IMG/VR virus record: IMGVR_UViG_2681813421_000003
Length of the DNA stretch: 12,717 nucleotides
Direction: 5' to 3' (one strand)
Source of the DNA: a virus
Taxonomy: Duplodnaviria; Heunggongvirae; Uroviricota; Caudoviricetes
Shown: positions 1-12,717 of the stretch, piece after piece
Numbering within the stretch: position 1 is the first letter of the stretch
How the letters are laid out: each line of letters begins with the position of its first letter
Notes under the pieces: generated by a model
Database searches by the model: none
Seen by the model: only the letters and a program-made list of their open reading frames with translations
What the model was told of the DNA's origin: nothing
Program-made: the position numbers and the translations under genes

Positions 1-123
1 GAGCTGGTGGAGACGCGGGAACGACTGGTGAGAGACGCTGATGATTTTGTCGCAGTGGCGATCGCTGGTTTCAATCAGATGAATCGTGGTGGCCCGGCAG
101 GAAATGCCTTGGTGATGCACTAA
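1..123 (+). CDS. 3' end of an upstream gene (partial, unknown function)
   Basis: Frame 1 is open from the window edge to TAA at 121-123 (…ELVETRERLVRDADDFVAVAIAGFNQMNRGGPAGNALVMH*). Its position directly upstream of the replication initiator suggests a cII/YdaT-position gene, but there is no recognisable motif. Confidence 0.35.
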   Translation, partial: ELVETRERLVRDADDFVAVAIAGFNQMNRGGPAGNALVMH

Positions 124-146
124 AAGCACGGTGTTCGGAGTTTTTT

Positions 147-1094
147 ATGAGCAGCAAGCTTCATGGTCTTGTCTGGGAAGGGTGTGCCTTCACCGGCATG
201 ATCTTATCCAGGGTGGCAGTTATGGCTCGCCTTGCAGATTACAGCAATGACGAAGGTGTGTCATGGCCTGCAGTGGAGACCATTCGTCGTCAGATTGGGG
301 CAAAGAGTGAATCAACGGTTAAAGCTGCGATAGCAGAACTGGAAAAGAACGGCTGGCTGACGAAGGAGGAACGTAAGGTCGGTGGGCGTAATGAAAGCAA
401 TATCTACCGTCTTAATGTGGAAAAACTCGAAGCAGCAGCAGCGGCGGCGCGTGAGGCATATAAACCGAAAAGAAAAATTAGCCAGGCAAAAAATGACCCG
501 TCAAATATTGCCCCCTCAACGGTTAACCCATCAAATTTTGATGGATCAACCGTTGATAAAAAACAGTCGGATAGGGGGGCGATGGTTGGCCCCGATCCGT
601 CAGTATTAAAACCTGATCCGTCAGATAAAAGATCTTTTCGTCCGGAAGCTTCGCAACCGGACATGCAGACGGCTGAACAGGATTTTTTAACCCGACACCC
701 TGACGCGGTTGTGTTCAGTGCGAAAAAACGCCAGTGGGGTAGCCAGGAAGATTTAGCGTGTGCGCAGTGGATCTGGGGGCGAATCGTGAGTCTTTACGAG
801 CAGGCCGCCAGCGATGATGGCGAGATTTCGCGACCGAAAGAACCCAACTGGACCGCATGGGCCAACGACGTGCGCACAATGCGGATGCTGGATGGCAGAA
901 CTCACAGACAAATTTGTGAAATGTTTGGTCGGGTGCAGCGGGATCCATTTTGGGTAAAAAATATCATGAGTCCGTCAAAGCTTCGCGAAAAATGGGATGA
1001 ACTGGTTATCCGCCTGGGGCGTTCGTCTGTACAGCGTTGTGTGAATCATATTTCTGAGCCGGATACCGAAATTCCGCCGGGATTCAGGGGGTGA
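147..1094 (+). CDS. phage replication initiation / primosomal protein (lambda O-like, DnaT-like), N-terminal helix-turn-helix
   Basis: 315-aa ORF with a GGAG Shine-Dalgarno 6 nt upstream. The N-terminus (…VSWPAVETIRRQIGAKSESTVKAAIAELEKNGWL…) is typical of phage replication-initiator HTH domains. It lies immediately upstream of a DnaC-like loader and contains iteron-like repeats internally, as lambda O does. From memory it resembles Rac YdaU. Confidence 0.8.
   Translation: MSSKLHGLVWEGCAFTGMILSRVAVMARLADYSNDEGVSWPAVETIRRQIGAKSESTVKAAIAELEKNGWLTKEERKVGGRNESNIYRLNVEKLEAAAAAAREAYKPKRKISQAKNDPSNIAPSTVNPSNFDGSTVDKKQSDRGAMVGPDPSVLKPDPSDKRSFRPEASQPDMQTAEQDFLTRHPDAVVFSAKKRQWGSQEDLACAQWIWGRIVSLYEQAASDDGEISRPKEPNWTAWANDVRTMRMLDGRTHRQICEMFGRVQRDPFWVKNIMSPSKLREKWDELVIRLGRSSVQRCVNHISEPDTEIPPGFRG
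495..630. repeat. iteron-like direct repeats, putative origin of replication embedded in the initiator gene
   Basis: Four ~16-bp related repeats: gacccgtcaaatattg (495-510), aacccatcaaattttg (525-540), gatccgtcagtattaa (594-609), gatccgtcagataaaa (615-630), plus the palindrome gatcaaccgttgat (544-557). An A/T-richer stretch follows. The arrangement mirrors ori-lambda inside gene O. Confidence 0.5.
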
Positions 1095-1100
1095 CGTGTC

Positions 1101-1847
1101 ATGAAAAACATTGCGGCAGGTGGTGTTCTTGAGCGTATCCGTAAGCTGGCCCCACAGCATGTAATCGCGCCGTACCGGACAGTGGACGAGTGGCGCGAGT
1201 GGCAACTAGCAGAAGGGCGAAAACGTAGCGAGGAAATCAACCGCCAGAATCGCCAGTTGCGGGTGGAAAAAATCCTGAATCGTTCGGGCATCCAGCCTCT
1301 GCACAGCAAATGCTCGTTTGCGAATTATCAGGTGCAGAATGACGGGCAAAAACACGCGCTGAGCCAGGCAAAATCCATCGCTGACGAACTGATGACCGGG
1401 TGCACGAATTTTGTGTTCAGCGGTAAGCCGGGTACCGGAAAGAACCACCTTGCAGCCGCCATTGGTAATCATCTTCTGGCGAAAGGTCGCAGCGTGATTG
1501 TGATAACGGTGGCTGATGTGATGCTGGCGTTACACAACAGCTACGACAACAAAAACTCAGGCGAAAAATTTTTACAGGGGTTGTGTGATGTTGACCTGCT
1601 TGTCCTGGATGAAATCGGAATGCAGCGGGATACGCGCAACGAGCAGGTCACGCTGAACCAGATAGTCGACCGCAGAACGGCTTCGATGCGCAGTGTCGGA
1701 ATGCTGACAAACCTGAACCACGTAGCGATGAGTACGCTTCTTGGTGAGCGTGTAATGGACCGCATGGTCATGAACGGTGGTCGCTGGGTGAATTTTAACT
1801 GGGAGAGCTGGCGTTCGAATGTCAGGCACCTGAGGGTTGTGAAGTAA
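1101..1847 (+). CDS. DnaC-like replicative helicase loader (AAA+ ATPase)
   Basis: 248 aa with a Walker A motif (FSGKPGTGKNHLAAAIG) and Walker B (DLLVLDEIG). It is colinear with E. coli DnaC from MKN… through …LGERVMDRM…NFNWESWRS. From memory it resembles Rac YdaV. Confidence 0.9.
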   Translation: MKNIAAGGVLERIRKLAPQHVIAPYRTVDEWREWQLAEGRKRSEEINRQNRQLRVEKILNRSGIQPLHSKCSFANYQVQNDGQKHALSQAKSIADELMTGCTNFVFSGKPGTGKNHLAAAIGNHLLAKGRSVIVITVADVMLALHNSYDNKNSGEKFLQGLCDVDLLVLDEIGMQRDTRNEQVTLNQIVDRRTASMRSVGMLTNLNHVAMSTLLGERVMDRMVMNGGRWVNFNWESWRSNVRHLRVVK

Positions 1848-1868
1848 TTTTGTCCGGAGGAAATTTTA

Positions 1869-2630
1869 ATGGAAACCGTTTTTGACGCACTGAAAGCAAT
1901 GGGAAAAGCCACATCCATAGAACTTGCTGCGCGACTTGATATCAGTCGTGAAGAAGTGCTGAACGAACTATGGGAACTGAAAAAGGCTGGTTTCGTTGAT
2001 AAAAGCGCGTACACCTGGCGTGTGGCTGATAACAACGTTCAGCAGGAACAGCCAGCGCAGGCAGAACTGCCGGAAGAAACCTCCACGGCGACAGTAGCGA
2101 AAATCTCAGAGTGCGATTTAACCGCGACGATTGAACAACACGGACCACAAACGGCTGATGAGCTGGCTACATTGTTTGGTACCACATCACGCAAAGTGGC
2201 TTCAACGCTGGCAATGGCAATCAGCAAAGGACGCCTGATTCGTGCAAATCAGGACGGTAAATTTCGTTACTGCATGCCGGGCGATAATTTACCAGCAGAG
2301 CCGAAAGCAGCATCGGTAGCGGAAACTGATGGTAAAGCCTTTCCTCAGCCTGCATGTGTTGCGTTACCAGTACAGGAGGCTGCAACACAGGAAGATATTA
2401 AAACAGAAACTGTGGCGGACATTGTGCAGTCGCTGCCATCGTTTACTGAAACGCGAGCGGATGACCTGGTTTTACCATCGCTGCATATGGCAAACCGCGA
2501 ACTGCGTCGGGCGAAAAGTCATGCCCAGAAGTGGGAACGAGTCTGCGCCGCGCTGCGGGAGCTGAACAAGCACCGGGATATTGTTCGACATATTTTCGAT
2601 TCCTCCAGTCATATTGTGTCGGAAAAGTGA
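1869..2630 (+). CDS. hypothetical phage protein with N-terminal winged-helix-like domain (YdaW-position gene)
   Basis: 253-aa ORF with GGAGG 8 nt upstream. The N-terminal ~45 aa (…[29 protein letters not shown]) look like a wHTH; the rest is acidic and low-complexity. No function can be assigned from sequence. Confidence 0.65.
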
Positions 2631-2646
2631 TTCCTGGGGAGGGCTT

Positions 2647-3069
2647 ATGGCAAAAGTTTTTACACAAGAAGAGCGAGAAAAAATTAAAGGGCAGGTTGTT
2701 GAACTCGTACGCCAGAGTGGGCGTGAGACGTTACGGCAACTGGAAGTCAAGACAGGTGCGACAAGATATCTGATGAGCGTTCTCGCAAGAGAGCTGGTTG
2801 CCAGCGGCGATGTATACAACTCTGGTTACGGGTTATTCCCGTCTGAACAGGCGCGTAAGGACTGGCAAAATGCCCGTAAAAAACTATCAAGGGCAAAGGT
2901 GAAGAAACCGGTTGTGGTTGATCCTGACCTTATCTGGTCATTACCCGACGGAGAAATACGTCGTTACGACAGGCGTCTGAACATAATCTGTCGCGAGTGC
3001 CGGAAGAGTGAGGTTATGCAGCGAGTGCTGGCGTTTTATCAGGGTAATTTTCAGGAGGTGATGGCGTGA
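2647..3069 (+). CDS. hypothetical nin-region-like protein
   Basis: The tracked ORF 2581-3069 was trimmed to the ATG at 2647, which has GGGGAGGG 4 nt upstream. 140 aa, basic, with a C-terminal ICRECRK motif. Its stop overlaps the next gene's start (GTGA). Confidence 0.55.
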   Translation: MAKVFTQEEREKIKGQVVELVRQSGRETLRQLEVKTGATRYLMSVLARELVASGDVYNSGYGLFPSEQARKDWQNARKKLSRAKVKKPVVVDPDLIWSLPDGEIRRYDRRLNIICRECRKSEVMQRVLAFYQGNFQEVMA

Positions 3070-3479
3070 GGGTGAGGGTTTATATCGCTGGTCCGATGAC
3101 CGGGTATAAAAATTTCAACCGTGAGGCGTTCCACAAGGCGGAAGAGGAACTGAAACGGGAAGGGCATACAGTCTTGAACCCGGCAGTACTTCCGGACGGG
3201 CTGACACAGCCACACTACATGGATATCTGCATGGCGATGATTCGTTGCGTGGATGCGATTTACATGCTGCAAGGCTGGCAGCGGTCAGCAGGCGCTAAAG
3301 CGGAACTGGCTCTGGCGGAGAAGCTAGGGCATGTGGTTGTTTTTCAGAGGGGGCGATATGCCGATTCTCTGGTTTCAGGAGGTGTGGGAAAAAGAAATGT
3401 GGGAAGGTCTTGTGATTGTGGCCGAAACAGTTCTTTTATTATGGTCTGTGATTGCGTGTATTTTTATGATTTATTGTGA
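3066..3479 (+). CDS. DUF4406-like / nucleoside 2-deoxyribosyltransferase-like protein
   Basis: GTG start with AGGAGG 8 nt upstream. The N-terminal ~95 aa (VYIAGPMTGYKNFNREAFHKAEEELKREGHTVLNPAVLP…GWQRSAGAKAELALAEKLGHVV) match the family. The reading frame then runs ~40 aa further than expected for this family. Confidence 0.6.
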   Translation: MRVRVYIAGPMTGYKNFNREAFHKAEEELKREGHTVLNPAVLPDGLTQPHYMDICMAMIRCVDAIYMLQGWQRSAGAKAELALAEKLGHVVVFQRGRYADSLVSGGVGKRNVGRSCDCGRNSSFIMVCDCVYFYDLL

Positions 3480-3483
3480 ATGA
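3358..3483 (+). CDS. putative small hydrophobic peptide (41 aa), unannotated short ORF
   Basis: ATG at 3358 with AGAGGGGG 4 nt upstream. Encodes MPILWFQEVWEKEMWEGLVIVAETVLLLWSVIACIFMIYCE, with one predicted transmembrane segment. It overlaps the 3' tail of the DUF4406 ORF in another frame. Below the 60-aa cut-off of the ORF track. Confidence 0.25.
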   Translation: MPILWFQEVWEKEMWEGLVIVAETVLLLWSVIACIFMIYCE

Positions 3484-3510
3484 TGTGAATCTCGCGGTGG
3501 CCACTGAATT

Positions 3511-3553
3511 GCAACCATTACCCCCTGTGATGTAATTGTGGGGTAATGGTTGC
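3511..3553. repeat. perfect 14-bp inverted repeat with 15-nt spacer (hairpin or protein-binding site)
   Basis: gcaaccattacccc (3511-3524) pairs with ggggtaatggttgc (3540-3553). No T-run follows, so it is not a canonical intrinsic terminator. It sits in the intergenic gap upstream of the 3587 gene. Confidence 0.6.
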
Positions 3554-3586
3554 GCAGGCATAGCGACAGGACTGGATGAGAAAAAT

Positions 3587-4009
3587 ATGACGAAATTTAC
3601 CAGAGAGCAATTGATTGCTCATGCTAATGAAAGTGTGAAATCCATGAAATTTGCTGCGCGACAGACCGTGTTTAAGACTTCAAGAGTTGCCATTGAAATG
3701 GATCTTGCGCTTGCCCGTATTGCGCTTGCCTCACTTGAAGCAATGCCAGTTGCATGGTCCTGTGCTCACAATATGGTTTTGTTCAATGCTGAATCTGTTG
3801 CGGCATACGCAAAACACTCAGCCATTGCGCCAAAACCCCTGTACGCTGCGCAACCGGCATCACTTTCACATGAGGAAGAGTTGACAATGCTGGTTAAACA
3901 ATTGGTAAGTCAGTTGAAAAAAGCGAAACCAGATTGCAAATTACCGGATATGGCGATGGGGTATCTGGAGCGGAATGGGCTGATAAGCGCGGAGGATGTT
4001 TTACGATGA
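3587..4009 (+). CDS. hypothetical phage protein
   Basis: The tracked ORF 3536-4009 was trimmed to the ATG at 3587 (MTKFTREQLIAHANE…), because the 3536 start lies inside the inverted repeat. 140 aa, with no recognisable motif. Confidence 0.5.
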   Translation: MTKFTREQLIAHANESVKSMKFAARQTVFKTSRVAIEMDLALARIALASLEAMPVAWSCAHNMVLFNAESVAAYAKHSAIAPKPLYAAQPASLSHEEELTMLVKQLVSQLKKAKPDCKLPDMAMGYLERNGLISAEDVLR

Positions 4010-4089
4010 CCTGGCCGGAGGCATTCACAACGACAGGAATTGCAATGGCGGCAGCACTTGTTGTGTATTCGATTTGCCGCTGGGGATAA
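4006..4089 (+). CDS. putative small hydrophobic peptide (27 aa), translationally coupled
   Basis: ATGA stop/start overlap with the upstream gene. Encodes MTWPEAFTTTGIAMAAALVVYSICRWG. Below the ORF-track cut-off; there is no homology evidence. Confidence 0.2.
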   Translation: MTWPEAFTTTGIAMAAALVVYSICRWG

Positions 4090-4096
4090 AAACGGT

Positions 4097-4124
4097 TTGC
4101 AGTGAAAGGGGAGTTAAGTAGAAT
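4097..4124 (+). promoter_or_regulatory. putative sigma70 promoter of the hok transcript
   Basis: TTGCAG (4097-4102), a 16-nt spacer, then TAGAAT (4119-4124). The predicted start near 4131 places the 5' end exactly at the segment that is complementary to the 3' end of the locus. Confidence 0.4.
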
Positions 4125-4300
4125 TGCTGCGGGTGCTTGAGGCTATCTGCCTCAGGCATGAACACCAAAAGGCAGATAGAGAAAAGCCCCAGTTAACATT
4201 ACGCGTCCTGCAAGACGCTTAACATTAATCTGAGGCTCAATCTATGTCTCACAAATGTAGGTTAGCCTCTTACGTGCCGAAAGGCAAGGAGAAGCAGGCT

Positions 4301-4456
4301 ATGAAGCAGCAAAAGGCGATGTTAATCGCCCTTATCGTCATCTGTTTAACCGTCATAGTGACGGCACTGGTAACGAGGAAAGACCTCTGCGAGGTACGAA
4401 TCCGAACCGGCCAGACGGAGGTCGCTGTCTTCACAGCTTACGAACCTGAGGAGTAA
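4301..4456 (+). CDS. hok: Hok/Gef-family type I toxin (small membrane-depolarising peptide)
   Basis: 51 aa, MKQQKAMLIALIVICLTVIVTALVTRKDLCEVRIRTGQTEVAVFTAYEPEE, with the hallmark transmembrane helix followed by the conserved Cys and the RTG motif. It matches HokD/RelF-type peptides from memory. AAGGAG lies 9 nt upstream. An in-frame upstream ATG at 4244, with a GAGG Shine-Dalgarno, would give a 70-aa mok-like extended product. Confidence 0.85.
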   Translation: MKQQKAMLIALIVICLTVIVTALVTRKDLCEVRIRTGQTEVAVFTAYEPEE

Positions 4457-4463
4457 GAGACCA

Positions 4464-4485
4464 GGCGAGGGAGAAATCCCTCGCC
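4464..4485 (+). other. stable stem-loop with GAAA tetraloop in the hok 3' UTR
   Basis: ggcgaggga (4464-4472), loop gaaa, tccctcgcc (4477-4485): a 9-bp stem directly after the hok stop codon. Confidence 0.6.
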
Positions 4486-4524
4486 ACCTCTGATGTGTCA
4501 GGCATCCTCAACGCACCCGCACTT

Positions 4525-4546
4525 AACCCGCTTCGGCGGGTTTTTC
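4525..4546 (+). terminator. intrinsic terminator (hok 3' end); first copy of a duplicated 20-mer
   Basis: Stem cccgc / gcggg with a ttcg loop (4527-4540), followed by TTTTT. The 20-mer aacccgcttcggcgggtttt (4525-4544) recurs identically at 5372-5391. Confidence 0.7.
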
Positions 4547-4671
4547 GTCGCATAATGAGGTTGTAATTTTAGCTACCATTAGACTATCCTAAGGATCTCA
4601 AACAGATCTATTTTGCATCAAATTTGGTGCATGGCTTTGCCAATAATCGGAAAACAAAAGGACTCATTAGT

Positions 4672-4851
4672 ATGAGCTGCCCACTCAAAAAACACACGCG
4701 GTTGAGTATTCCGCCTCGCGATAAAAGCGTTGTGGCAGTCCCTCGCCCAGCGATTGATGAAAACTGCGCACATCGTGAACAAGTGAAAAATGCTTTTGAT
4801 TTCGGTTTTTCTCGTTATGAGAAAGCCATGGAAGAACTTTCAAAAGTGTAA
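4672..4851 (+). CDS. putative antitoxin partner of the Doc-family toxin (unclassified small protein)
   Basis: 59 aa, from the ATG at 4672 with AAAGGA 9 nt upstream; the tracked ORF begins at 4624 but has no Shine-Dalgarno. It ends 18 nt before the Doc-family gene. Not obviously Phd/YefM-like, so the call rests on position only. Confidence 0.45.
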   Translation: MSCPLKKHTRLSIPPRDKSVVAVPRPAIDENCAHREQVKNAFDFGFSRYEKAMEELSKV

Positions 4852-4869
4852 TGATGGGTATTGTGCTCT

Positions 4870-5355
4870 ATGGCTGAGATTGTTGAAGGAGTGCATTACC
4901 TTACGGTTGATGATCTTGTTGAAATCAATCGTTCCCTAATTGAATTACAGACGCCAGATGAGCCCGTTGGTGTTCTGAGTCCAGATAACTTAAGTTCTTC
5001 TCAGGCCCGTCCCAGCATGGTTCGATGGTATGAACAGACTAATGACATGTTTGTACTGGCATCGGTATTGATTGAAAGTCTGATTCAGAATCATCCGTTT
5101 GCTAATGCGAACAAACGAACAGCTATGATGGCTGGTTACGTCTTCTTGTTGTTGAATGGCTATGAGTTAACAGCACCAGGCGATGAAATCGTGGAAATGG
5201 CAGAGGGACTGGCCTGCAAAACCTATACTCGAGAAGATCTCGAGAACTGGTTGTGTTATTGGTCTCGCGCGTATGACAGCCGGGAATTATGTAAAACAGG
5301 CGCAACTATTGTTTTGTATGAAACTATCAAGCTTAAAATAGAACAGCAAAACTAA
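4870..5355 (+). CDS. Doc/Fic-family (death-on-curing) toxin
   Basis: 161 aa containing HPFANANKRTA, which fits the Doc-type motif HxFx(D/N)(A/G)NKR. Overall size and layout are typical of Doc toxins. Confidence 0.8.
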   Translation: MAEIVEGVHYLTVDDLVEINRSLIELQTPDEPVGVLSPDNLSSSQARPSMVRWYEQTNDMFVLASVLIESLIQNHPFANANKRTAMMAGYVFLLLNGYELTAPGDEIVEMAEGLACKTYTREDLENWLCYWSRAYDSRELCKTGATIVLYETIKLKIEQQN

Positions 5356-5371
5356 AGGTGCTTCCAATGAA

Positions 5372-5398
5372 AACCCGCTTCGGCGGGTTTTGTTTTTT
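5372..5398 (+). terminator. intrinsic terminator after the Doc gene; second copy of the duplicated 20-mer
   Basis: Stem cccgc / gcggg with a ttcg loop (5374-5387), followed by ttttgtttttt. Identical 20-mer to 4525-4544. Confidence 0.7.
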
Positions 5399-5470
5399 CC
5401 TGGCATTCTGGTTTACAATTCGCACGCCAGCCTGAACAACTGGCACCTGCTGCGCCAGCAGAGACAACCG

Positions 5471-5743
5471 ATGGCGCACAAAAACAAATTTCACAATTCT
5501 GATACCGACCTTGCCATCCGGCACGGGCGGCGTTCACACGCATTTAAAACCGACTGGTACCAACACCCACCATGTACTGAAGAACAGGCCGAATGGCTAA
5601 TTCATAACTACCGCAGGCGCGGATACGAGGTTAAGAAAGCCCTCAGCCTCGATTATCGTCACTGGATAATCTATGTCAGGCTCCCTTATTCCGAACGCCC
5701 ACCGCGTCCGTCCCGCACATTCCAGCAACGCATCTGGAGGTAA
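5471..5743 (+). CDS. hypothetical basic protein (orphan ORF at a deletion junction)
   Basis: The tracked ORF 5390-5743 begins inside the terminator, so the first plausible start is the ATG at 5471 (MAHKNKFHNSD…), giving 90 aa. Weak Shine-Dalgarno and no recognisable domain. Confidence 0.35.
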   Translation: MAHKNKFHNSDTDLAIRHGRRSHAFKTDWYQHPPCTEEQAEWLIHNYRRRGYEVKKALSLDYRHWIIYVRLPYSERPPRPSRTFQQRIWR

Positions 5744-5748
5744 CGTGC

Positions 5749-6183
5749 GGGTATTACTTCGACCTGTTCCGGTATCCCAACGGCACTGTTGATGTTTTCC
5801 GTGGCTGGCTGAGCTCACTGGGTAAAACCATTGCCTCAAAAGACGTGATGACCCGCACTGTGAAAATCAGCGGTGTGGGGCGTCCACATCTGGCAGAGGA
5901 AGGCACTGAAACCGTGAGCGTTACCGGGCTGACAGTAGCACCGGCATCTGCCAGTGTAAGAGTGGGAGCAACCACCACGCTGACCTTTACAGTAAAACCT
6001 GACGAAGCCAGTGACAAAGCGATCAGTGTGCATTCGACAGATCCACAGACTGCCACGGTGACCCTGAACGGGCTTGTGGCCACGGTGAAAGGCGTGAAGC
6101 AGGGCAGTGTCAGTATTGTGGGCATGACTTCTGACGGCGATTTTGTGGCAGTGGCTACGGTGGCTGTCAGCGCCGCAGGTTAA
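5749..6183 (+). pseudogene. V: major tail protein V, N-terminally truncated remnant (C-terminal Ig-like/Big_2 part retained)
   Basis: Frame 1 translation …[38 protein letters not shown]… is colinear with lambda gpV (…[39 protein letters not shown]…) through to the C-terminal Ig-like domain. There is no start codon or N-terminal domain; the frame is open from 5635 but similarity begins only around 5750. Confidence 0.7.
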
Positions 6184-6203
6184 CAGGACGATACTCATCA
6201 TTT

Positions 6204-6228
6204 GCCCCGGTTATCCGGGGCTTTTTTG
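6204..6228 (+). terminator. hairpin + T-run between V remnant and G
   Basis: gccccgg ttat ccggggc followed by TTTTTT (6222-6227). Confidence 0.5.
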
Positions 6229-6240
6229 CAGGTGGAGAAC

Positions 6241-6630
6241 ATGATGTTTCTGAAACAGGACACGTTTAATTATGAAAAACAGTCCGTGGTGCTCAGTGAG
6301 CTGTCCGGGCTGCAGAGAATTGAATATCTGACGTTTGTTCAGCAGCGAACGGCAAAGTTTGATGCCGGGGAGGGAGAGCTGCCGGGGGCTGAACGACAGA
6401 TTGCTTTTCTGCGGATGGGGATGGATATCAATGCCTGGCTGGTTTCCCGCTCACTGTGGAATGCGGAACAGTCTCAGGATGTTGAGACGCTTTACGCATC
6501 CGTTATTACAACATGGTCGTATGATGCCCTGGGGGCGGGGGCAGAGATGGTTCTGTCGCTGAGCGGTATGGGAGCCATTGAGAATGCCGGGGATTTGGAG
6601 CATGAGGTGCTGACGCCGGAAAAGTCCTGA
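6241..6630 (+). CDS. G: tail assembly chaperone G
   Basis: MMFLKQDTFNYEKQSVVLSELSGLQRIEYL… aligns with lambda gpG (MFLKTESFEHNGVTVTLSELSALQRIEHL…). The tracked ORF was trimmed to the ATG at 6241; 6244 is an alternative start, with GGAG upstream. Confidence 0.85.
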   Translation: MMFLKQDTFNYEKQSVVLSELSGLQRIEYLTFVQQRTAKFDAGEGELPGAERQIAFLRMGMDINAWLVSRSLWNAEQSQDVETLYASVITTWSYDALGAGAEMVLSLSGMGAIENAGDLEHEVLTPEKS

Positions 6631-6968
6631 CGCGGGAAATGCAGTTTGTCATGCGGCTTGCCCGGGAGTTCCGGCGGGCAGACTGGCGGCGGATGCTGTC
6701 GGAAATGTCGGCCACTGAGCTTGGTGAGTGGGGCGATTATTTCCGGATGCAGAGCTTCAGTGATGTGTGGATGGATGCGCAGTTTGCCTCGCTGAAGGCA
6801 TTGATCGTGAGAATGGTGTCCGGCAGCAGTGATGCTGTGGTGGCTGATTTCAGCCTTTTACCGGAAGAGAACGGGATACCGGAGCGAACGGACGAAGAAC
6901 TGATGCATCTTGGGGAAGGTATTTCCGGAGGTGTGCGTTATGGACCAGATAGCCAACCTGGTCATTGA
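6618..6968 (+). CDS. T: tail assembly chaperone T segment, expressed as G-T fusion by -1 frameshift
   Basis: An ORF in the -1 frame relative to G overlaps the G 3' end with no stop between. A candidate slip site is G GAA AAG at 6618-6624, just before the G stop codon. The arrangement is the conserved lambda G/GT one. Confidence 0.6.
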   Translation, partial: GKVLTREMQFVMRLAREFRRADWRRMLSEMSATELGEWGDYFRMQSFSDVWMDAQFASLKALIVRMVSGSSDAVVADFSLLPEENGIPERTDEELMHLGEGISGGVRYGPDSQPGH

Positions 6969-9900
6969 TTTGGGGATTGATGCGGCAGAGTTTAAAAATG
7001 AAATTCCCCGTATCAAAAACCTTCTGAATGGTGCAGCCAGCGATGCAGAACGGTCTTCTGCCCGTATGCAGCGTTTTATGGAGCGTCAGACTCAGGCCGC
7101 CCGGCAGACAACGCAGGCGGCTTCTTCGGCTGCAACAGCCGCATCCGTCCATGCGCAGACGGTGGAGAAGAACGCACAGGCCCATGAACGCATGGCCCGT
7201 GAGGTGGAGCAAACCCGCCAGCGCATGGAGGCACTGAGCCAGAAAATGCGCGAGGAACAGGCGCAGGCCATGGCTCTGGCGGAGGCTCAGGATAAAGCGG
7301 CTGCTGCGTTTTATCGTCAGATTGACAGTGTGAAACAGGCCAGTGCGGGGCTGCAGGAATTACAGCGTATTCAGCAGCAGATCCGACAGGCCAGAAACAG
7401 CGGCGGGATTGGTCAGCAGGATTATCTGGCGCTGATTTCTGAGGTTACGGCGAAAACCCGTGTTCTTACACAGGCTGAGGAAGAGGCTACCCGACAGAAA
7501 GTGGCGTTTATCCGTCAGCTTAAAGAGCAGGCAACCCGCCAGAATCTTTCATCTTCTGAGTTGCTTCGCGCCAGGGCAGCCCAGCTGGGGGTAAGCGGTG
7601 CTGCAGAAGTGTATATCCGCAAAATGGAGCGGGCAGGAAAAGCCACGCATTCGCTGGGTCTGAAAAGTGCAGCAGCCCGCCAGGAGATAGGCGTTCTGAT
7701 AGGTGAACTGGCCCGCGGCAATTTAGGGGCGCTGAGGGGATCCGGGATAACGCTGGCTAACCGTGCCGGATGGATAGACACACTGATGTCACCGAAAGGC
7801 ATGATGCTTGGCGGGGTTATTGGCGGTATTGCCGCGGCCGTCTATGGTCTGGGTAAAGCCTGGTATGACGGTCAGAAGGAGGGGGAAGAATTTAACCGCC
7901 AGCTGTCGCTGACGGGGCATTATGCCGGAGTCACTGCCGGGCAGCTGTGGGTGCTCAGTCGTGCTATTTCCGGGAATGGTATCACGCAACATGCTGCAGC
8001 CGGTGCGCTGGCTCAGGTGGTGGGGAGTGGTGCATTTCGTGGAGGTGATATCGCCATGGTGGCGAAAGCTGCCGCGCAAATGGAACGTTCAGTGGGGCAG
8101 TCTGTCAGCGACACCATAAGTCAGTTTAAGCGACTGAAGGATGATCCGGTAAATGCAGCCAGGACGCTGGATAATGAACTGCATTTCCTGACTGCCACCC
8201 AGCTTGAACAAGTCCGTGTTCTCGGGGAACAGGGGCGTGCCAGTGATGCTGCCCGGATCGCCATGTCAGCGCTGGCAGAGGAAACCGGTAAACGCACATC
8301 TGATATTGATAATAATCTCAATGCGCTGGGCAGTACGCTGCAAACCTTATCTGACTGGTGGAAGCAGTTCTGGGATGCCGCCATGAATATCGGGCGTAAT
8401 GATTCCCTTGATGCGCAGATTGCGGCGCTGCAGGAAAAAATTCAGCGTGCGAAAAAATCGCCCTGGACAAATGCATCCACCACAGTGGAATACGACCAGC
8501 AGCGCCTTGATGAACTTCAGGAGAAAAAGCGCCAGAAAGATTTACAGGATGCAAAAGCGCAGGCTGAACGAAATTATCAGGAACAGCAGAAACGCCGGAA
8601 TGCTGAAAATGCTGCGCTGAACCGGATGAATGAAACGGAGGCGGCGCGACATCAACGTGAAATTGCGCGCATCAATGCCATGCAGTATGCCGACCAGGCG
8701 GTCAGGGACGCAGCGATACAGCGTGAAAATGAACGTTACAAAAAAGCCATTAAGAAAAAAACATCTGAAAACCGCAATGATGAAGCCACCCGGTTGCTGT
8801 TGCAGTACAGTCAGCAGCAGGCGCAGGTGGAGGGGCAGATTGCCGCCGCCAGACAGTCCGCGGGACTGACCACGGAAAAAATGACAGAGGCGCATAAGCA
8901 GCTTCTGGCCCTGCAGCAGCGTATCAGTGATCTGGCGGGTAAAAAGCTGACAGCAGATGAAAAAAGCGTGCTGGCGCATAAGGATGAGTTGATTCAGGCA
9001 CTGACGCTGCTGGATACAAAACAGCAGGAGCTGCAGAAGCAGACGGCGCTGAATGACCTGAAGAAAAAATCCATTCAGCTTGCCAGCCAGCTGGCGGAAG
9101 AGGAACGGGCTCTGCGTCAGCAACATGACCTGGATATCGCCACAACAGGGATGGGGGATAAACAGCGTCAGCGGTACCAGACACAGTTCAGTCTGCAACA
9201 GAAATATCAGCAGCAAATGGAGCAACTGGAGCGTGACAGTAAACAGAAAGGAACATACGGCTCAGATGAATACCGGGATGCTGAGCAGATGCTGACAGAC
9301 AGTCTTAACCGGCAACTGAACGAAAACAGACATTACTGGCAGGAGCAGGAACTGATGCAGGCAGACTGGAAAAACGGTGCCATGCGGGCGTTTCAGAATT
9401 TTACAGAGAGTGCGGATAACGCGGCAGGTACCGCTGAGCAGATGTTTACAGCGGCATTTAACAGCGCAGGTAATGCACTGGCGACGTTCTGCACCACCGG
9501 AAAACTGAACTTCAAATCTTTTACCGCCTCGCTCCTTTCTGATCTGGCAAAAATCATGTCGCAGATGGCCATGATGCAGGCGGTGAAGGGGATTGGTTCG
9601 GCGTTTGGCTGGGGGAGTGCAGCAGCTGCCAGTGTGACGCCAAATGCGGATGGCGGTGTTTATCAGTCTGCTGATTTGAGTCGCTACAGTGGCACGGTGG
9701 TTAACCGTCCGACGTTTTTTGCTTTTGCAAAAGGCGCGGGTGTGATGGGAGAAGCGGGGCCTGAAGCCATTCTGCCATTGCGTCGTGGTGCTGATGGCAA
9801 GCTGGGTGTTGTGGCGGATATTGGTGGTTCAGGTATGGTGATGTTTGCCCCGCAGTACAACATCGAGATCAATAACGATGGTACGAACGGGCAGATAGGT

Positions 9901-10005
9901 CCGGCTGCCCTGAAGGTGGTTTATGACCTCGGGAAAAAAGCAGCAGCGGACTTTATGCAACAGCAGGCCCGTGATGGTGGTCGGTTAAGTGGAGCATATC
10001 GGTAA
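6940..10005 (+). CDS. H: tail tape measure protein
   Basis: 1021 aa from the ATG at 6940 with GGAGG upstream. Long Q/A/R/E-rich coiled-coil body and a Gly-rich C-terminal region. It lies immediately after G-T and before M, as lambda H does. Confidence 0.9.
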   Translation: MDQIANLVIDLGIDAAEFKNEIPRIKNLLNGAASDAERSSARMQRFMERQTQAARQTTQAASSAATAASVHAQTVEKNAQAHERMAREVEQTRQRMEALSQKMREEQAQAMALAEAQDKAAAAFYRQIDSVKQASAGLQELQRIQQQIRQARNSGGIGQQDYLALISEVTAKTRVLTQAEEEATRQKVAFIRQLKEQATRQNLSSSELLRARAAQLGVSGAAEVYIRKMERAGKATHSLGLKSAAARQEIGVLIGELARGNLGALRGSGITLANRAGWIDTLMSPKGMMLGGVIGGIAAAVYGLGKAWYDGQKEGEEFNRQLSLTGHYAGVTAGQLWVLSRAISGNGITQHAAAGALAQVVGSGAFRGGDIAMVAKAAAQMERSVGQSVSDTISQFKRLKDDPVNAARTLDNELHFLTATQLEQVRVLGEQGRASDAARIAMSALAEETGKRTSDIDNNLNALGSTLQTLSDWWKQFWDAAMNIGRNDSLDAQIAALQEKIQRAKKSPWTNASTTVEYDQQRLDELQEKKRQKDLQDAKAQAERNYQEQQKRRNAENAALNRMNETEAARHQREIARINAMQYADQAVRDAAIQRENERYKKAIKKKTSENRNDEATRLLLQYSQQQAQVEGQIAAARQSAGLTTEKMTEAHKQLLALQQRISDLAGKKLTADEKSVLAHKDELIQALTLLDTKQQELQKQTALNDLKKKSIQLASQLAEEERALRQQHDLDIATTGMGDKQRQRYQTQFSLQQKYQQQMEQLERDSKQKGTYGSDEYRDAEQMLTDSLNRQLNENRHYWQEQELMQADWKNGAMRAFQNFTESADNAAGTAEQMFTAAFNSAGNALATFCTTGKLNFKSFTASLLSDLAKIMSQMAMMQAVKGIGSAFGWGSAAAASVTPNADGGVYQSADLSRYSGTVVNRPTFFAFAKGAGVMGEAGPEAILPLRRGADGKLGVVADIGGSGMVMFAPQYNIEINNDGTNGQIGPAALKVVYDLGKKAAADFMQQQARDGGRLSGAYR

Positions 10006-10334
10006 TGGAGACGTTTCACTGGAAAGTGCGCCCGGATATGAATGTGGTATCAGAGCCGAAAGTGGTGACAGTGAAGCTGGGCGATGGTTATGAACAGCGT
10101 CGTGCGGCGGGACTGAATAACCAGTTGTCGACTTACAGCGTGACGATACGTGTTCGTAAATGTGAACACCCATCTTTGAAAGCCTTTCTGGAACGGCACG
10201 GTGGCGTCCGCGCATTTCAGTGGACGCCACCTTATGACTGGAAGCCGATCACGGTGGTTTGTCGTAAATGGTCGGCAAGCGTGGGGGCGCTGTGGGTAAC
10301 CATAACGGCAGATTTTGAACAGGTCGTGGCATAG
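10005..10334 (+). CDS. M: minor tail protein M
   Basis: METFHWKVRPDMNVVSEPK…GDGYEQRRAAGLN…TYSVT…WTPPYDW…FEQVV matches lambda gpM along its length. Its start overlaps the H stop (TAATG). Confidence 0.9.
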   Translation: METFHWKVRPDMNVVSEPKVVTVKLGDGYEQRRAAGLNNQLSTYSVTIRVRKCEHPSLKAFLERHGGVRAFQWTPPYDWKPITVVCRKWSASVGALWVTITADFEQVVA

Positions 10335-10343
10335 GAGGCCCTG

Positions 10344-11042
10344 ATGCAGGATATTCCACAGGAAACACATCATGAGACGACACGCCTTACTCAGTCAGCC
10401 CAAGTGGTGCTCTGGGAAATCGATCTGACAGAGGTCGGTGGTGAACGTTATTTTTTCTGTAATGAGCAGAACGAAAAAGGTGAGCCGGTCACCTGGCAGG
10501 GGCGGCAGTATCAGGCATACCCCATTCAGGGGACGGGATTTGAACTGAACGGTAAGGGCAGTGCTGCCCGTCCGACACTGACGGTCTCTAACCTGCACGG
10601 CATGGTCACCGGGATGGCGGAAGACCTGCAGAGTCTGGTCGGCGGAACGGTGGTCAGGCGTAAGGTTTACGCCCGCTTTCTGGATGCGGTGAACTTCGTC
10701 AACGGAAACAGCGACGCCGATCCGGAGCAGGAGGTGATCAGCCGCTGGCGCATCGAGCAGTGTAGCGAACTGAGTGCGGTCAGTGCCTCCTTTGTGCTCT
10801 CCACACCGACGGAAACGGATGGTGCTGTTTTTCCGGGGCGCATCATGCTGGCCAACACCTGCACCTGGACCTATCGCGGCGATGAGTGCGGTTATCACGG
10901 TCCGGCTGTCGCTGATGAATATGACCAGCCGACGTCCGATATCACGAAGGATAAATGCAGCAAATGCCTGAGTGGTTGTAAGTTTCGCAATAACGTCGGC
11001 AACTTTGGCGGCTTCCTTTCCATTAACAAACTTTCGCAGTAA
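10344..11042 (+). CDS. L: minor tail protein L (Fe-S cluster tail tip protein)
   Basis: 232 aa with AGGAGG 5 nt upstream. It carries the conserved C-terminal cysteine cluster (CTWTYRGDECGYHG … CSKCLSGCKF). Confidence 0.9.
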   Translation: MQDIPQETHHETTRLTQSAQVVLWEIDLTEVGGERYFFCNEQNEKGEPVTWQGRQYQAYPIQGTGFELNGKGSAARPTLTVSNLHGMVTGMAEDLQSLVGGTVVRRKVYARFLDAVNFVNGNSDADPEQEVISRWRIEQCSELSAVSASFVLSTPTETDGAVFPGRIMLANTCTWTYRGDECGYHGPAVADEYDQPTSDITKDKCSKCLSGCKFRNNVGNFGGFLSINKLSQ

Positions 11043-11046
11043 TCCC

Positions 11047-11211
11047 ATGACACAGACAGAATCAGCGATTCTGGCGCACGCCCGGCGATGTGCGCCAGCG
11101 GAATCGTGCGGCTTCGTGGTGAGAACGCCGGAGGGGGAAAGATATTTTCCCTGCGTGAATATCTCCGGTGAGCCGGAGGCGTATTCCGGCGGTGGCATTC
11201 AGTGGCGCTAA
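11047..11211 (+). pseudogene. K: tail assembly protein K, truncated after ~46 residues
   Basis: [46 protein letters not shown] is a typical K N-terminus. It is then followed by unrelated residues (SGGGIQWR) and a stop, so the peptidase core is absent. Confidence 0.75.
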
Positions 11212-11245
11212 GCATGAGAGAGAGCATACTGATATTTACTCCTCA

Positions 11246-11473
11246 TGCCGTCTGATAGTGCGGAAAAACGGTGCTGAAATTTATAACCGTACCGCGCTGG
11301 ATAATACGCTGATTTACAGTGGCGTTATTGATATGCCTGCCGGTCACGGTCACATGACGCTGGAGTTTTCGGTATCAGCATGGCTGGTGAATAACTGGTA
11401 TCCCACAGCAAGTATCAGCGATTTGCTGGTTGTGGTGATGAAGAAAGCCACCGCAGGCATCAGTATCAGCTGA
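11246..11473 (+). pseudogene. J: host specificity protein J, C-terminal remnant only
   Basis: …[75 protein letters not shown] matches, from memory, the extreme C-terminal receptor-binding end of lambda-family J. There is no upstream J coding sequence. The junction coordinate is approximate. Confidence 0.6.
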
Positions 11474-11491
11474 ATTTTATAACCCATATAC

Positions 11492-11518
11492 GGGCGCCAG
11501 AAATGGCGCCTTTTTTAT
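11492..11518 (+). terminator. intrinsic terminator after the J remnant
   Basis: gggcgcc agaaat ggcgcc followed by TTTTTTATT. Confidence 0.6.
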
Positions 11519-11540
11519 TGCAGAAAAGCGAGAGGTAATT

Positions 11541-12140
11541 ATGCGTAAATTATGTGCTGTTATTCTGTCCGCAGCCATCTGTCTGTCCGTATCCGGTGCG
11601 CCTGCATGGGCGTCTGAACATCAGTCCACACTGAGCGCGGGGTATCTTCATGCCCGTACGAACGCTCCCGGCAGCGATAATCTGAACGGGATTAACGTGA
11701 AATACCGTTATGAGTTTACGGACACGCTGGGGCTGGTGACGTCATTCAGTTATGCCAATGCCAAAGATGAGCAAAAAACGCATTACAGCGATACCCGCTG
11801 GCATGAAGATTCCGTGCGTAACCGCTGGTTCAGCGTGATGGCGGGGCCGTCTGTACGCGTGAATGAATGGTTCAGCGCGTATGCGATGGCGGGTATGGCT
11901 TACAGCCGTGTGTCGACTTTCTCCGGGGATTATCTCCGCGTAACTGACAACAAGGGGAAAACGCACGACGTGCTGACCGGAAGTGATGACGGTCGCCACA
12001 GCAATACCTCTCTGGCGTGGGGAGCTGGCGTGCAGTTTAACCCGACCGAATCCGTGGCCGTTGATGTCGCTTATGAAGGCTCCGGCAGCGGTGACTGGCG
12101 TACCAACAGTTTCATCGTGGGTGTCGGCTATAAATTCTGA
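11541..12140 (+). CDS. lom: Lom/Ail-family outer membrane beta-barrel protein
   Basis: 199 aa with a signal peptide (…SVSGAPAWA/SE). It is colinear with lambda Lom, including GINVKYRYE, SVMAGP, YAMAG and the C-terminal VDVAYEGSGSGDWRT..FIVGVGYKF. Confidence 0.9.
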   Translation: MRKLCAVILSAAICLSVSGAPAWASEHQSTLSAGYLHARTNAPGSDNLNGINVKYRYEFTDTLGLVTSFSYANAKDEQKTHYSDTRWHEDSVRNRWFSVMAGPSVRVNEWFSAYAMAGMAYSRVSTFSGDYLRVTDNKGKTHDVLTGSDDGRHSNTSLAWGAGVQFNPTESVAVDVAYEGSGSGDWRTNSFIVGVGYKF

Positions 12141-12166
12141 TTAGCCAGGTAACACAGTGTTATGAC

Positions 12167-12193
12167 AGCCCGCCGGTTCAGGCGGGCTTTTTT
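12167..12193 (+). terminator. intrinsic terminator after lom
   Basis: gcccgcc ggttca ggcgggc followed by TTTTTT. Confidence 0.65.
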
Positions 12194-12195
12194 GT

Positions 12196-12205
12196 GGGGG
12201 GGGGG
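12196..12205. repeat. G10 homopolymer tract immediately upstream of the stf start codon
   Basis: Ten consecutive G (12196-12205), then aat, then the ATG at 12209. Confidence 0.9.
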
Positions 12206-12208
12206 AAT

Positions 12209-12717
12209 ATGGCAGTACTGATTTCAGGTGTACTGAAAGACGGTGCAGGTAAGCCGATACAAAACTGCACCATTCAGCTAAAGGCCAGGCGCAACAGCAC
12301 CACGGTGGTGGTGAACACAGTGGCCTCAGAAAATCCGGATGAAGCCGGGCGTTATACAATGGACGTCGAGTATGGTCAGTACAGCGTCAGTCTGTTGGTG
12401 GAGGGGTTCCCGCCGTCACACGCCGGGATTATCACCGTATATGAGGACTCAAAGCCTGGCACACTGAATGATTTCCTCGGTGCAATGACGGAGGATGATG
12501 CCCGTCCGGAGGCACTGCGCCGTTTTGAGCTGATGGTGGAAGAGGTGGCGCGTAACGCCTCCGCGGTGGCACAGAACACGGCAGCCGCGAAGAAGTCAGC
12601 CAGCGATGCCAGCACATCAGCCCGTGAGGCGGCAACCCGTGCGACTGATGCTGCAGGCTTAGCACGTGCCGCCAGCACGTCAGCCGGACAGGCCGCATCG
12701 TCGGCTCAGTCAGCGTC
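12209..12717 (+). CDS. stf: side tail fiber protein, N-terminal part (runs off the window)
   Basis: MAVLISGVLKDGAGKPIQNCTIQLKARRNSTTVVVNTV…DVEYGQYSV…FPPSHAGIITVYEDS… is near-colinear with the lambda Stf N-terminus, followed by the Ala/Ser-rich repeat region. There is no stop within the window. Confidence 0.85.
   Translation, partial: MAVLISGVLKDGAGKPIQNCTIQLKARRNSTTVVVNTVASENPDEAGRYTMDVEYGQYSVSLLVEGFPPSHAGIITVYEDSKPGTLNDFLGAMTEDDARPEALRRFELMVEEVARNASAVAQNTAAAKKSASDASTSAREAATRATDAAGLARAASTSAGQAASSAQSA

Follow-up and report, generated by a model that had tools for sequence, protein, structure and literature searches.

Truncated tail genes K and J in a defective Rac-like prophage: very probably the scar of a recent, private deletion

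Introduction

What event brought the start of tail gene K up against the end of tail gene J in a lambdoid prophage, and do the genes that survive around the join reflect selection or decay? The tail initiator complex of phage lambda requires J, I, L, K, H, M and G/GT, and V, U and Z are needed later. The locus lies in a stretch of 12,717 nucleotides of viral DNA (Caudoviricetes; IMG/VR record IMGVR_UViG_2681813421_000003), the whole of which we refer to as the window. An initial annotation described here the second deletion scar of the window, at which a truncated K is fused to the C-terminal tip of J, and left two readings of the tail genes retained beside it: neutral decay, or retention of parts that complement or recombine with incoming phages. 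We propose that the scar very probably records a recent, private deletion of ~4.4 kb in a Rac-like lambdoid prophage that was already defective, that both stubs are pseudogenes, and that the locus is in neutral decay.

Results and Discussion

The window carries a defective prophage

Window positions 1–5774 are 100% identical to the early/replication region of a Rac-like lambdoid prophage located in ompW of E. coli E1739. From position 5773 on, the sequence runs colinear with the tail operons found in intact lambda-like prophages. Among the sequences used for comparison, L002 (NZ_CP035832.1) and L086 (NZ_CP025892.1, from strain 503025) carry intact operons, as do phages Tritos, cdtI and mEp460. 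L003 (CP025902.1, 13,549 bp) was deposited as a complete phage, 'Escherichia phage 500465-3'; alignment of the window proteins to its H, L, lom and stf is in each case broken into several pieces, and the record appears to describe a prophage remnant, or to contain indel errors, rather than to represent a viable phage. Window positions 5773–11188 correspond to L002 3001–8417 (95.5% identity) and positions 11182–12717 to L002 12812–14343 (BLAST), so that colinearity with L002 is broken at one point. The features of this part of the window, with families assigned to the open reading frames by Pfam, are the following.

5773–6183, plus strand: V', a fragment of the major tail protein, residues 110–247 with the Big_2 domain (tblastn with V of L002; Pfam Big_2; BLAST break at 5773/5774)
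6244–6630, plus strand: G, tail assembly chaperone, 128 aa, full length (Phage_TAC_2, 1.4e-40; 96–98%, ungapped against L002/L003)
6639–6968, plus strand: T reading frame, the G-T frameshift extension, 109 aa, full length (Phage_tail_T; 99%, ungapped against L002)
6940–10005, plus strand: H, tape measure, 1021 aa, full length (TMP_2, TMP_4, Tape_meas_lam_C; 95.6% over 1–1021, ungapped against L002)
10005–10334, plus strand: M, minor tail protein, 109 aa, full length (Phage_min_tail, 1e-39; 99% against L002)
10344–11042, plus strand: L, minor tail protein, 232 aa, full length (Phage_tail_L, 2e-99; 99.6% against L002)
11047–11211, plus strand: K', pseudogene, 46 native codons (11047–11184), 8 foreign codons and TAA (tblastn, Pfam)
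11182–11188, no strand: deletion junction (window against the K and J regions of L002/L003; overlapping BLAST pieces)
11186–11473, plus strand: J', pseudogene fragment, J residues 1064–1159 of 1159 plus the stop codon (tblastn, Pfam)
11492–11511, plus strand: terminator-like hairpin and T-run after J
11541–12140, plus strand: lom, Ail/Lom outer-membrane beta-barrel, 199 aa, full length (Ail_Lom, 6.5e-126, positions 1–199 of 199)
12209–12717, plus strand: stf, side tail fibre, N-terminal 169 codons, running off the window (phage_tail_N, 5e-73)

The initial annotation had called G, T, H, M and L intact, and they are: all five are full length and free of stops, align with L002 without gaps at 95.6–99.6% amino acid identity, and belong to the expected Pfam families. 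The rest of the morphogenetic programme is gone. By open reading frames, Pfam and tblastn, U, Z, I, Q and the head, terminase and lysis genes are all missing from the window, and V, K and J are truncated. With its morphogenesis and lysis genes missing, the prophage in the window is a defective (cryptic) lambdoid prophage. Judged from this gene content it cannot produce tails or virions, since I, U and Z are absent, V, K and J are truncated, and Q and the head and lysis genes are absent; nor could G, T, H, M and L alone build a tail in the absence of J, I, K, the N-terminus of V, U, Z, the head and lysis genes and Q.

K and J abut at a four-base repeat

Where exactly does K end and J begin? In BLAST comparisons of the window with L002 and L003, the last base of K homology is 11185 and J homology runs from 11186 on, with zero filler between them. 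The end that the initial annotation gave for K, at about 11185 after …EPEAY, is thus exact. Its second coordinate is not, because J homology picks up again at 11182/11186, abutting K, rather than at about 11246, and the interval 11185–11246 is itself J sequence. The four bases TATT (11182–11185) are a microhomology, present on both the K side and the J side and kept once in the window. The parental sequences are here those of relatives (L002, L003 and L086), which stand in for the true parent. With a slash marking the break, the short form of the junction is …GCGTATT/TCCG for K, …TTGTTATT/CCGG for J and …GCGTATTCCGG for the window. At greater length, the parental K side reads …GAGGCGTATT/TCCGTATG, the parental J side, identical in L002, L003 and L086, reads …ATTGTTATT/CCGGCGGTG, and the window across the junction reads …GAGGCGTATTCCGGCGGTG. 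A one-base bulge lengthens the match to TATT(T)CCG (11182–11188), which accounts for the 7-nucleotide overlap of the BLAST pieces.

Several features of this join are those of a microhomology deletion: the flanks are colinear with one parental order, filler is lacking, and a short repeat is retained once. No IS element or recombinase site is seen in the sequence at the junction, and an Rfam scan has the sok RNA at 4131–4306 as its sole match, with nothing at the scar. By our own calculation, junctional identity of at least 4 nucleotides is expected in ~1.4% of random blunt joins. The signature fits short-homology illegitimate recombination, for which a 4-bp microhomology is suggestive and no proof. 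From it we infer a mechanism in which TATT-mediated illegitimate recombination would join K codon 46 to J codon 1064, the likely routes being replication slippage or RecA-independent end joining between sites ~4.4 kb apart.

What is missing between the two stubs is K residues 47–247, the whole of gene I, and J residues 1–1063. The loss of the K core, of all of gene I and of most of J had been noted before, and tblastn with intact K, I and J bears it out. Gene I of L002 has no match in the window at E ≤ 0.01 in any frame, and neither open reading frames nor tblastn disclose a full-length J in an alternative frame, the one finding that the initial annotation thought would overturn its reading; a hidden gene I or K C-terminus is likewise not found by tblastn in the other frames of the window.

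How long was the deleted segment? The window lacks 4,394 bp relative to L002 and ~4,370 bp relative to L003, and the intact operons carry a K-I-J segment of 4.3–4.6 kb at this place. We also drew a population sample from IMG/VR, consisting of 80 listed loci gathered via the L protein. In every one of the loci that carry both flanks (32/32), the flanks lie 4.31–4.62 kb apart, and the junction is present in none. The size of 4.3–4.6 kb (~4.4 kb) and the parental junction sequences are estimates taken from relatives, because the nearest tail block is just 95–98% identical and the true parental K-I-J segment is absent from the collections. No parent at least 99% identical on both sides of the junction was found: the best match on the right is L086, at 99.93% (92% on the left), and the best on the left reach 95–98%.

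Both stubs are pseudogenes

Could the join have created a new protein, in which the K N-terminus bears the receptor-binding tip of J and takes on a new function? To such an in-frame chimera we give almost no credence. The coding fragments do abut without filler, as a chimera would need; the frames, however, are off by one, the K frame meets a TAA at 11209–11211, the J frame is closed upstream of GTG 11168, K 1–46 and J 1064–1159 are both incomplete domains, and no slippery motif is evident at 11186–11208. An in-frame fusion is ruled out by the sequence itself, through the frame mismatch and the TAA 8 codons past the junction. The fusion of K and J described by the initial annotation is therefore real at the level of DNA and absent at the level of protein, given that the frames differ, K' stops at 11209–11211 and J' has no credible start codon.

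When intact K (247 aa) is compared with the window by tblastn, only residues 1–46 are matched (11047–11184, 100% identity). K' begins at ATG 11047 and, past …EPEAY, reads J DNA out of frame as SGGGIQWR before reaching its TAA, giving a product of 54 aa without catalytic motifs. In intact K the JAB domain spans residues 3–105 with the motif HSHP at 68–71, and the NlpC/P60 domain (NLPC_P60) spans 111–224; K' lacks both the HSHP motif of JAB and the entire NlpC/P60 domain, which lie past the breakpoint at residue 46. What remains of Prok-JAB covers profile positions 3–40 of 114 and scores 23.3 bits against a curated Pfam cut-off of 25. A tip protein K ('C40 family peptidase') is known by a complete Prok-JAB domain with the HxH metal motif and by an NlpC/P60 domain, and K' possesses neither. 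The K' peptide has no record in an exact-protein look-up. An antisense open reading frame of 267 aa at 10395–11198, which overlaps L and K', matches no Pfam family and was taken as spurious.

From J (1159 aa), tblastn finds only the C-terminal 96 residues (1064–1159), at 11183–11470, in place of the ~75 residues counted initially. The first of them, Ile, is encoded by ATT 11183–11185, inside the microhomology. The J' frame differs from the K' frame, has no ATG before 11333, and extends upstream no further than GTG 11168, a codon within K' for which no Shine-Dalgarno sequence or ribosome-binding site is evident. A promoter scan of 10300–12717 gave nothing above shuffle expectation and nothing for J', and the J-frame open reading frame, with its first residue set to M, has no record in an exact-protein look-up. 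Intact J has six domains (FNIII-A, Phage-tail_3, Ig_J, Ig_J_second, Phage_Tail_Tip and Ig_GpJ_C), the last of which occupies residues 1029–1159; J' retains its profile positions 39–135 of 135 (Pfam). A tip attachment protein has the full multi-domain architecture and a complete Ig_GpJ_C in a translatable open reading frame, and J' shows neither. It aligns to lambda J 1039–1131 in PDB entries 8iyk and 8xcj, with E values of 7e-10 to 1e-27 against PDB chains, and among solved structures it is closer to 'A8 gpJ' than to lambda J. The statement that the receptor-binding tip of J is retained is accordingly right by homology, yet the domain, as judged from its profile and reading frame, is incomplete and not translatable. 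For annotation, K' (11047–11211) and J' (11186–11473) are best entered as pseudogene fragments of one deletion; labels such as fusion gene or small hypothetical protein should be avoided.

Related prophages have lost different segments

The intact V-G-T-H-M-L-K-I-J-lom-stf operons share gene order and families with the window, and their DNA is 92–98% identical to it left of the scar and 93–99.9% right of it. The tail block of the window is closest to L002 (95.5%), with phages Tritos, cdtI and mEp460 at ~98% for 9900–11189. The segment from the J tip through lom to stf is 99.93% identical to the intact prophage L086, which in its tail block matches the window at only 92%.

This difference in nearest relatives (L002 at 95.5% or Tritos at 98.6% on the left, L086 at 99.9% on the right) is what a join between two prophages in one cell would leave, if K came from one element and J from another. 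We nevertheless regard such a join as quite unlikely. Lambdoid tails are routinely mosaic, and one phage can be expected to have different nearest relatives along its length; the genes follow the order and orientation of one tail operon exactly; and the E1739 prophage in ompW has both the early region (at 100%) and the lom'-stf right end (at 99.76%), so that the two ends already belonged to one element. Given this mosaicism, and given that both ends are shared in E1739, a simple internal deletion is the more parsimonious account.

The E1739 prophage (NZ_CM180506.1, 1364231–1387514, in ompW) deserves closer comparison. It is 100% identical to window 1–5774 and 99.76% identical to 11894–12717, the last 824 bp, and on these identities the two evidently belong to one prophage lineage. 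At the position of the first scar of the window it has 6 kb comprising DUF968, RusA, Q, kinase/phosphatase, methyltransferase and tRNAs. It lacks window 5775–11893, and with it the tail block and the K'-J' junction, and carries a scar of its own in lom (L001 19852). The complementary losses in the window and in E1739 point to an ancestor that was more complete and very recent, from which the two lineages lost different segments independently. Judged by that of E1739, the attachment site of the window prophage is apparently ompW, and not ttcA as in Rac.

K-12 Rac (NC_000913.3, 1411899–1434958) offers a second comparison. Like the window it is defective and has kept its early/replication region and a right end of lom-stf; from both, internal deletions have removed the head and lysis genes along with part or most of the tail. 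Its ydaU/ydaV-like genes are 84% identical to window 1059–2318, and lomR-stfR is 91–99% identical to window 11783–12717. In Rac the deletion has its end point within lom, at the equivalent of window 11783, with an IS5 (L005 17428–18985), whereas the window keeps V'-G-T-H-M-L-K' and the J tip; in Rac the G-L block is absent, and the sole tape-measure remnant, ynaA, is of a different sequence type. The three Rac-type remnants thus have three right-hand end points: J codon 1064 in the window, lom in E1739, and lom with IS5 in K-12. Downstream of these points, stf and tfa are retained in all three.

The scar is rare and probably recent

How widespread is the K-J junction? A 201-bp query spanning it, at a coverage of at least 80%, is present in 0 of 5,426 complete E. 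coli genomes, each half alone giving thousands of matches. Exact junction words are absent from GTDB species-representative genomes and from JGI metagenome contigs and occur once in IMG/VR, in IMGVR_UViG_2698536676_000005. This contig is 100% identical to window 11019–12717 (1,699 bases) and shares its end point, and is most likely the very contig from which the window derives. On this distribution, and with the E1739 sister so closely identical, the scar is best explained as strain-private and recent.

A junction known from a single public contig, identical to the window over the same 1,699 bases, also raises the question of an artefact of assembly or of prophage calling, with no K-J join in the cell. 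Paralogous lambdoid tail operons, which occupy a median of 4 places per E. coli genome, are a known cause of misassembly. Misassembly arises at long shared repeats, however, and the K and J sites share only TATT or TATT(T)CCG; moreover, neither flank is repeated inside the window, the flanks keep operon order and strand, and comparable real deletions are found in finished genomes (E1739 and K-12 Rac). An artefact is, in our judgement, highly improbable.

We return to the preferred reading, a recent deletion, and to what it implies for the genes beside the scar. Since 5.8 kb of the sister lineage match the window at 100% identity, the deletions would be too recent for decay to have become visible, and intact G-L open reading frames are expected under neutrality: at the divergence between the window and E1739, one or two substitutions are expected across the 4.8-kb G-L block. 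G, T, H, M and L would be intact simply because too little time has passed for them to decay. We infer neutrality from this recency; the intactness of open reading frames beside a scar is itself no evidence for selective retention, and should not be taken as such in other prophages. The selective retention of an intact G-H-M-L block, which the initial annotation had singled out, thereby loses its footing, and its alternative of neutral decay gains support from the private junction, the microhomology, the frame mismatch and the complementary deletion in E1739. On the same four grounds, as far as sequence comparison can tell, neutral decay is the best-supported account and is favoured over selective retention.

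Retention as a reservoir for recombination

Is there nevertheless a case for selection? G-T-H-M-L, the J tip, lom and stf could have been preserved for an advantage that they give to the host or to incoming phages, either as a reservoir for recombination that alters the host range of superinfecting lambdoid phages or as a source of tail parts that complement in trans, and either role would be compatible with an accidental deletion. Phage lambda picks up relic DNA of Rac, Qin and DLP12 at ~1e-6 to 1e-4 per phage, including across stf/tfa (PMC3945230), and recombination of lambda J with the J relic ECB_00512 of E. coli REL606 doubled lambda fitness (Borin et al., bioRxiv 10.1101/2020.11.02.365361). 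Besides these precedents, the J tip matches lambda J 1039–1131, within the receptor-binding domain; a homologous partner exists in L086, 99.9% identical from the J tip through lom to stf; and the window, E1739 and K-12 remnants, for all their different deletion end points, all keep stf. ECB_00512 resembles J' in that both are chromosomal pseudogene fragments derived from J, and sets a precedent for such a fragment as donor to an infecting lambdoid phage. It differs in having given ~1.3 kb of internal J in an experimental exchange; J' amounts to 291 bp from the very C-terminal end of J and is known here from sequence. By analogy with Rac, Qin, DLP12 and a J relic, for which the idea already has experimental backing, a role of the present relic as a recombination reservoir is plausible.

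That selection for such a role has kept these genes is a different proposition, and we consider it unlikely. The private junction, together with a sister that is 100% identical over 5.8 kb, means that intact open reading frames are expected without selection. The G-L block is dispensable, being wholly lost in E1739 and in K-12 Rac. Q went with the first deletion, as presumably did the adjacent late promoter of lambdoid phages, which makes expression for complementation doubtful. Finally, an exchange of the J tip would have only 291 bp of left-hand homology to draw on, and the receptor-binding domain is incomplete. A bolder version, in which G-T-H-M-L and J-tip-lom-stf form a maintained 'spare-parts' cassette, drawn on by superinfecting lambdoid phages through homologous recombination or trans-complementation for switching host range, or by the host as mismatched assembly parts that poison the tails of incoming phages, appears to us very unlikely; if it held, selection would account for the repeated retention of the right-end module among independent Rac-type remnants.

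We therefore class the prophage as defective and the scar as ordinary prophage decay, an already known kind of event whose significance beyond annotation is small. As a pair, the window and E1739, with 5.8 kb identical and different multi-kb deletions, illustrate neatly, on a small scale, the speed at which lambdoid prophages decay.

Other features of the window

The first deletion scar, at 5773/5774, joins the start of a DUF968 gene (5745) to V codon 110; the frames do not match, and the two sides overlap by 2 bp. Strong terminator-like hairpins with T-runs are present at 6204–6221, in the interval between V' and G, at 11492–11511, after J, and at 12167–12188, after lom; the latter two flank lom as a small unit of its own. 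A run of ten G (12196–12205) lies between the lom terminator and the stf ATG at 12209, in the ribosome-binding region of stf. The length of this run is variable: 10 in L086, 8 in E1739 (L001) and L003, and 6 in three IMG/VR loci. In the early region, a hok/sok type I toxin-antitoxin system consists of the sok RNA (4131–4306; Rfam RF01794, 121.6 bits) and a hokD-like open reading frame (4244–4456), and the annotation of E1739 places a Doc-family toxin gene downstream of it.
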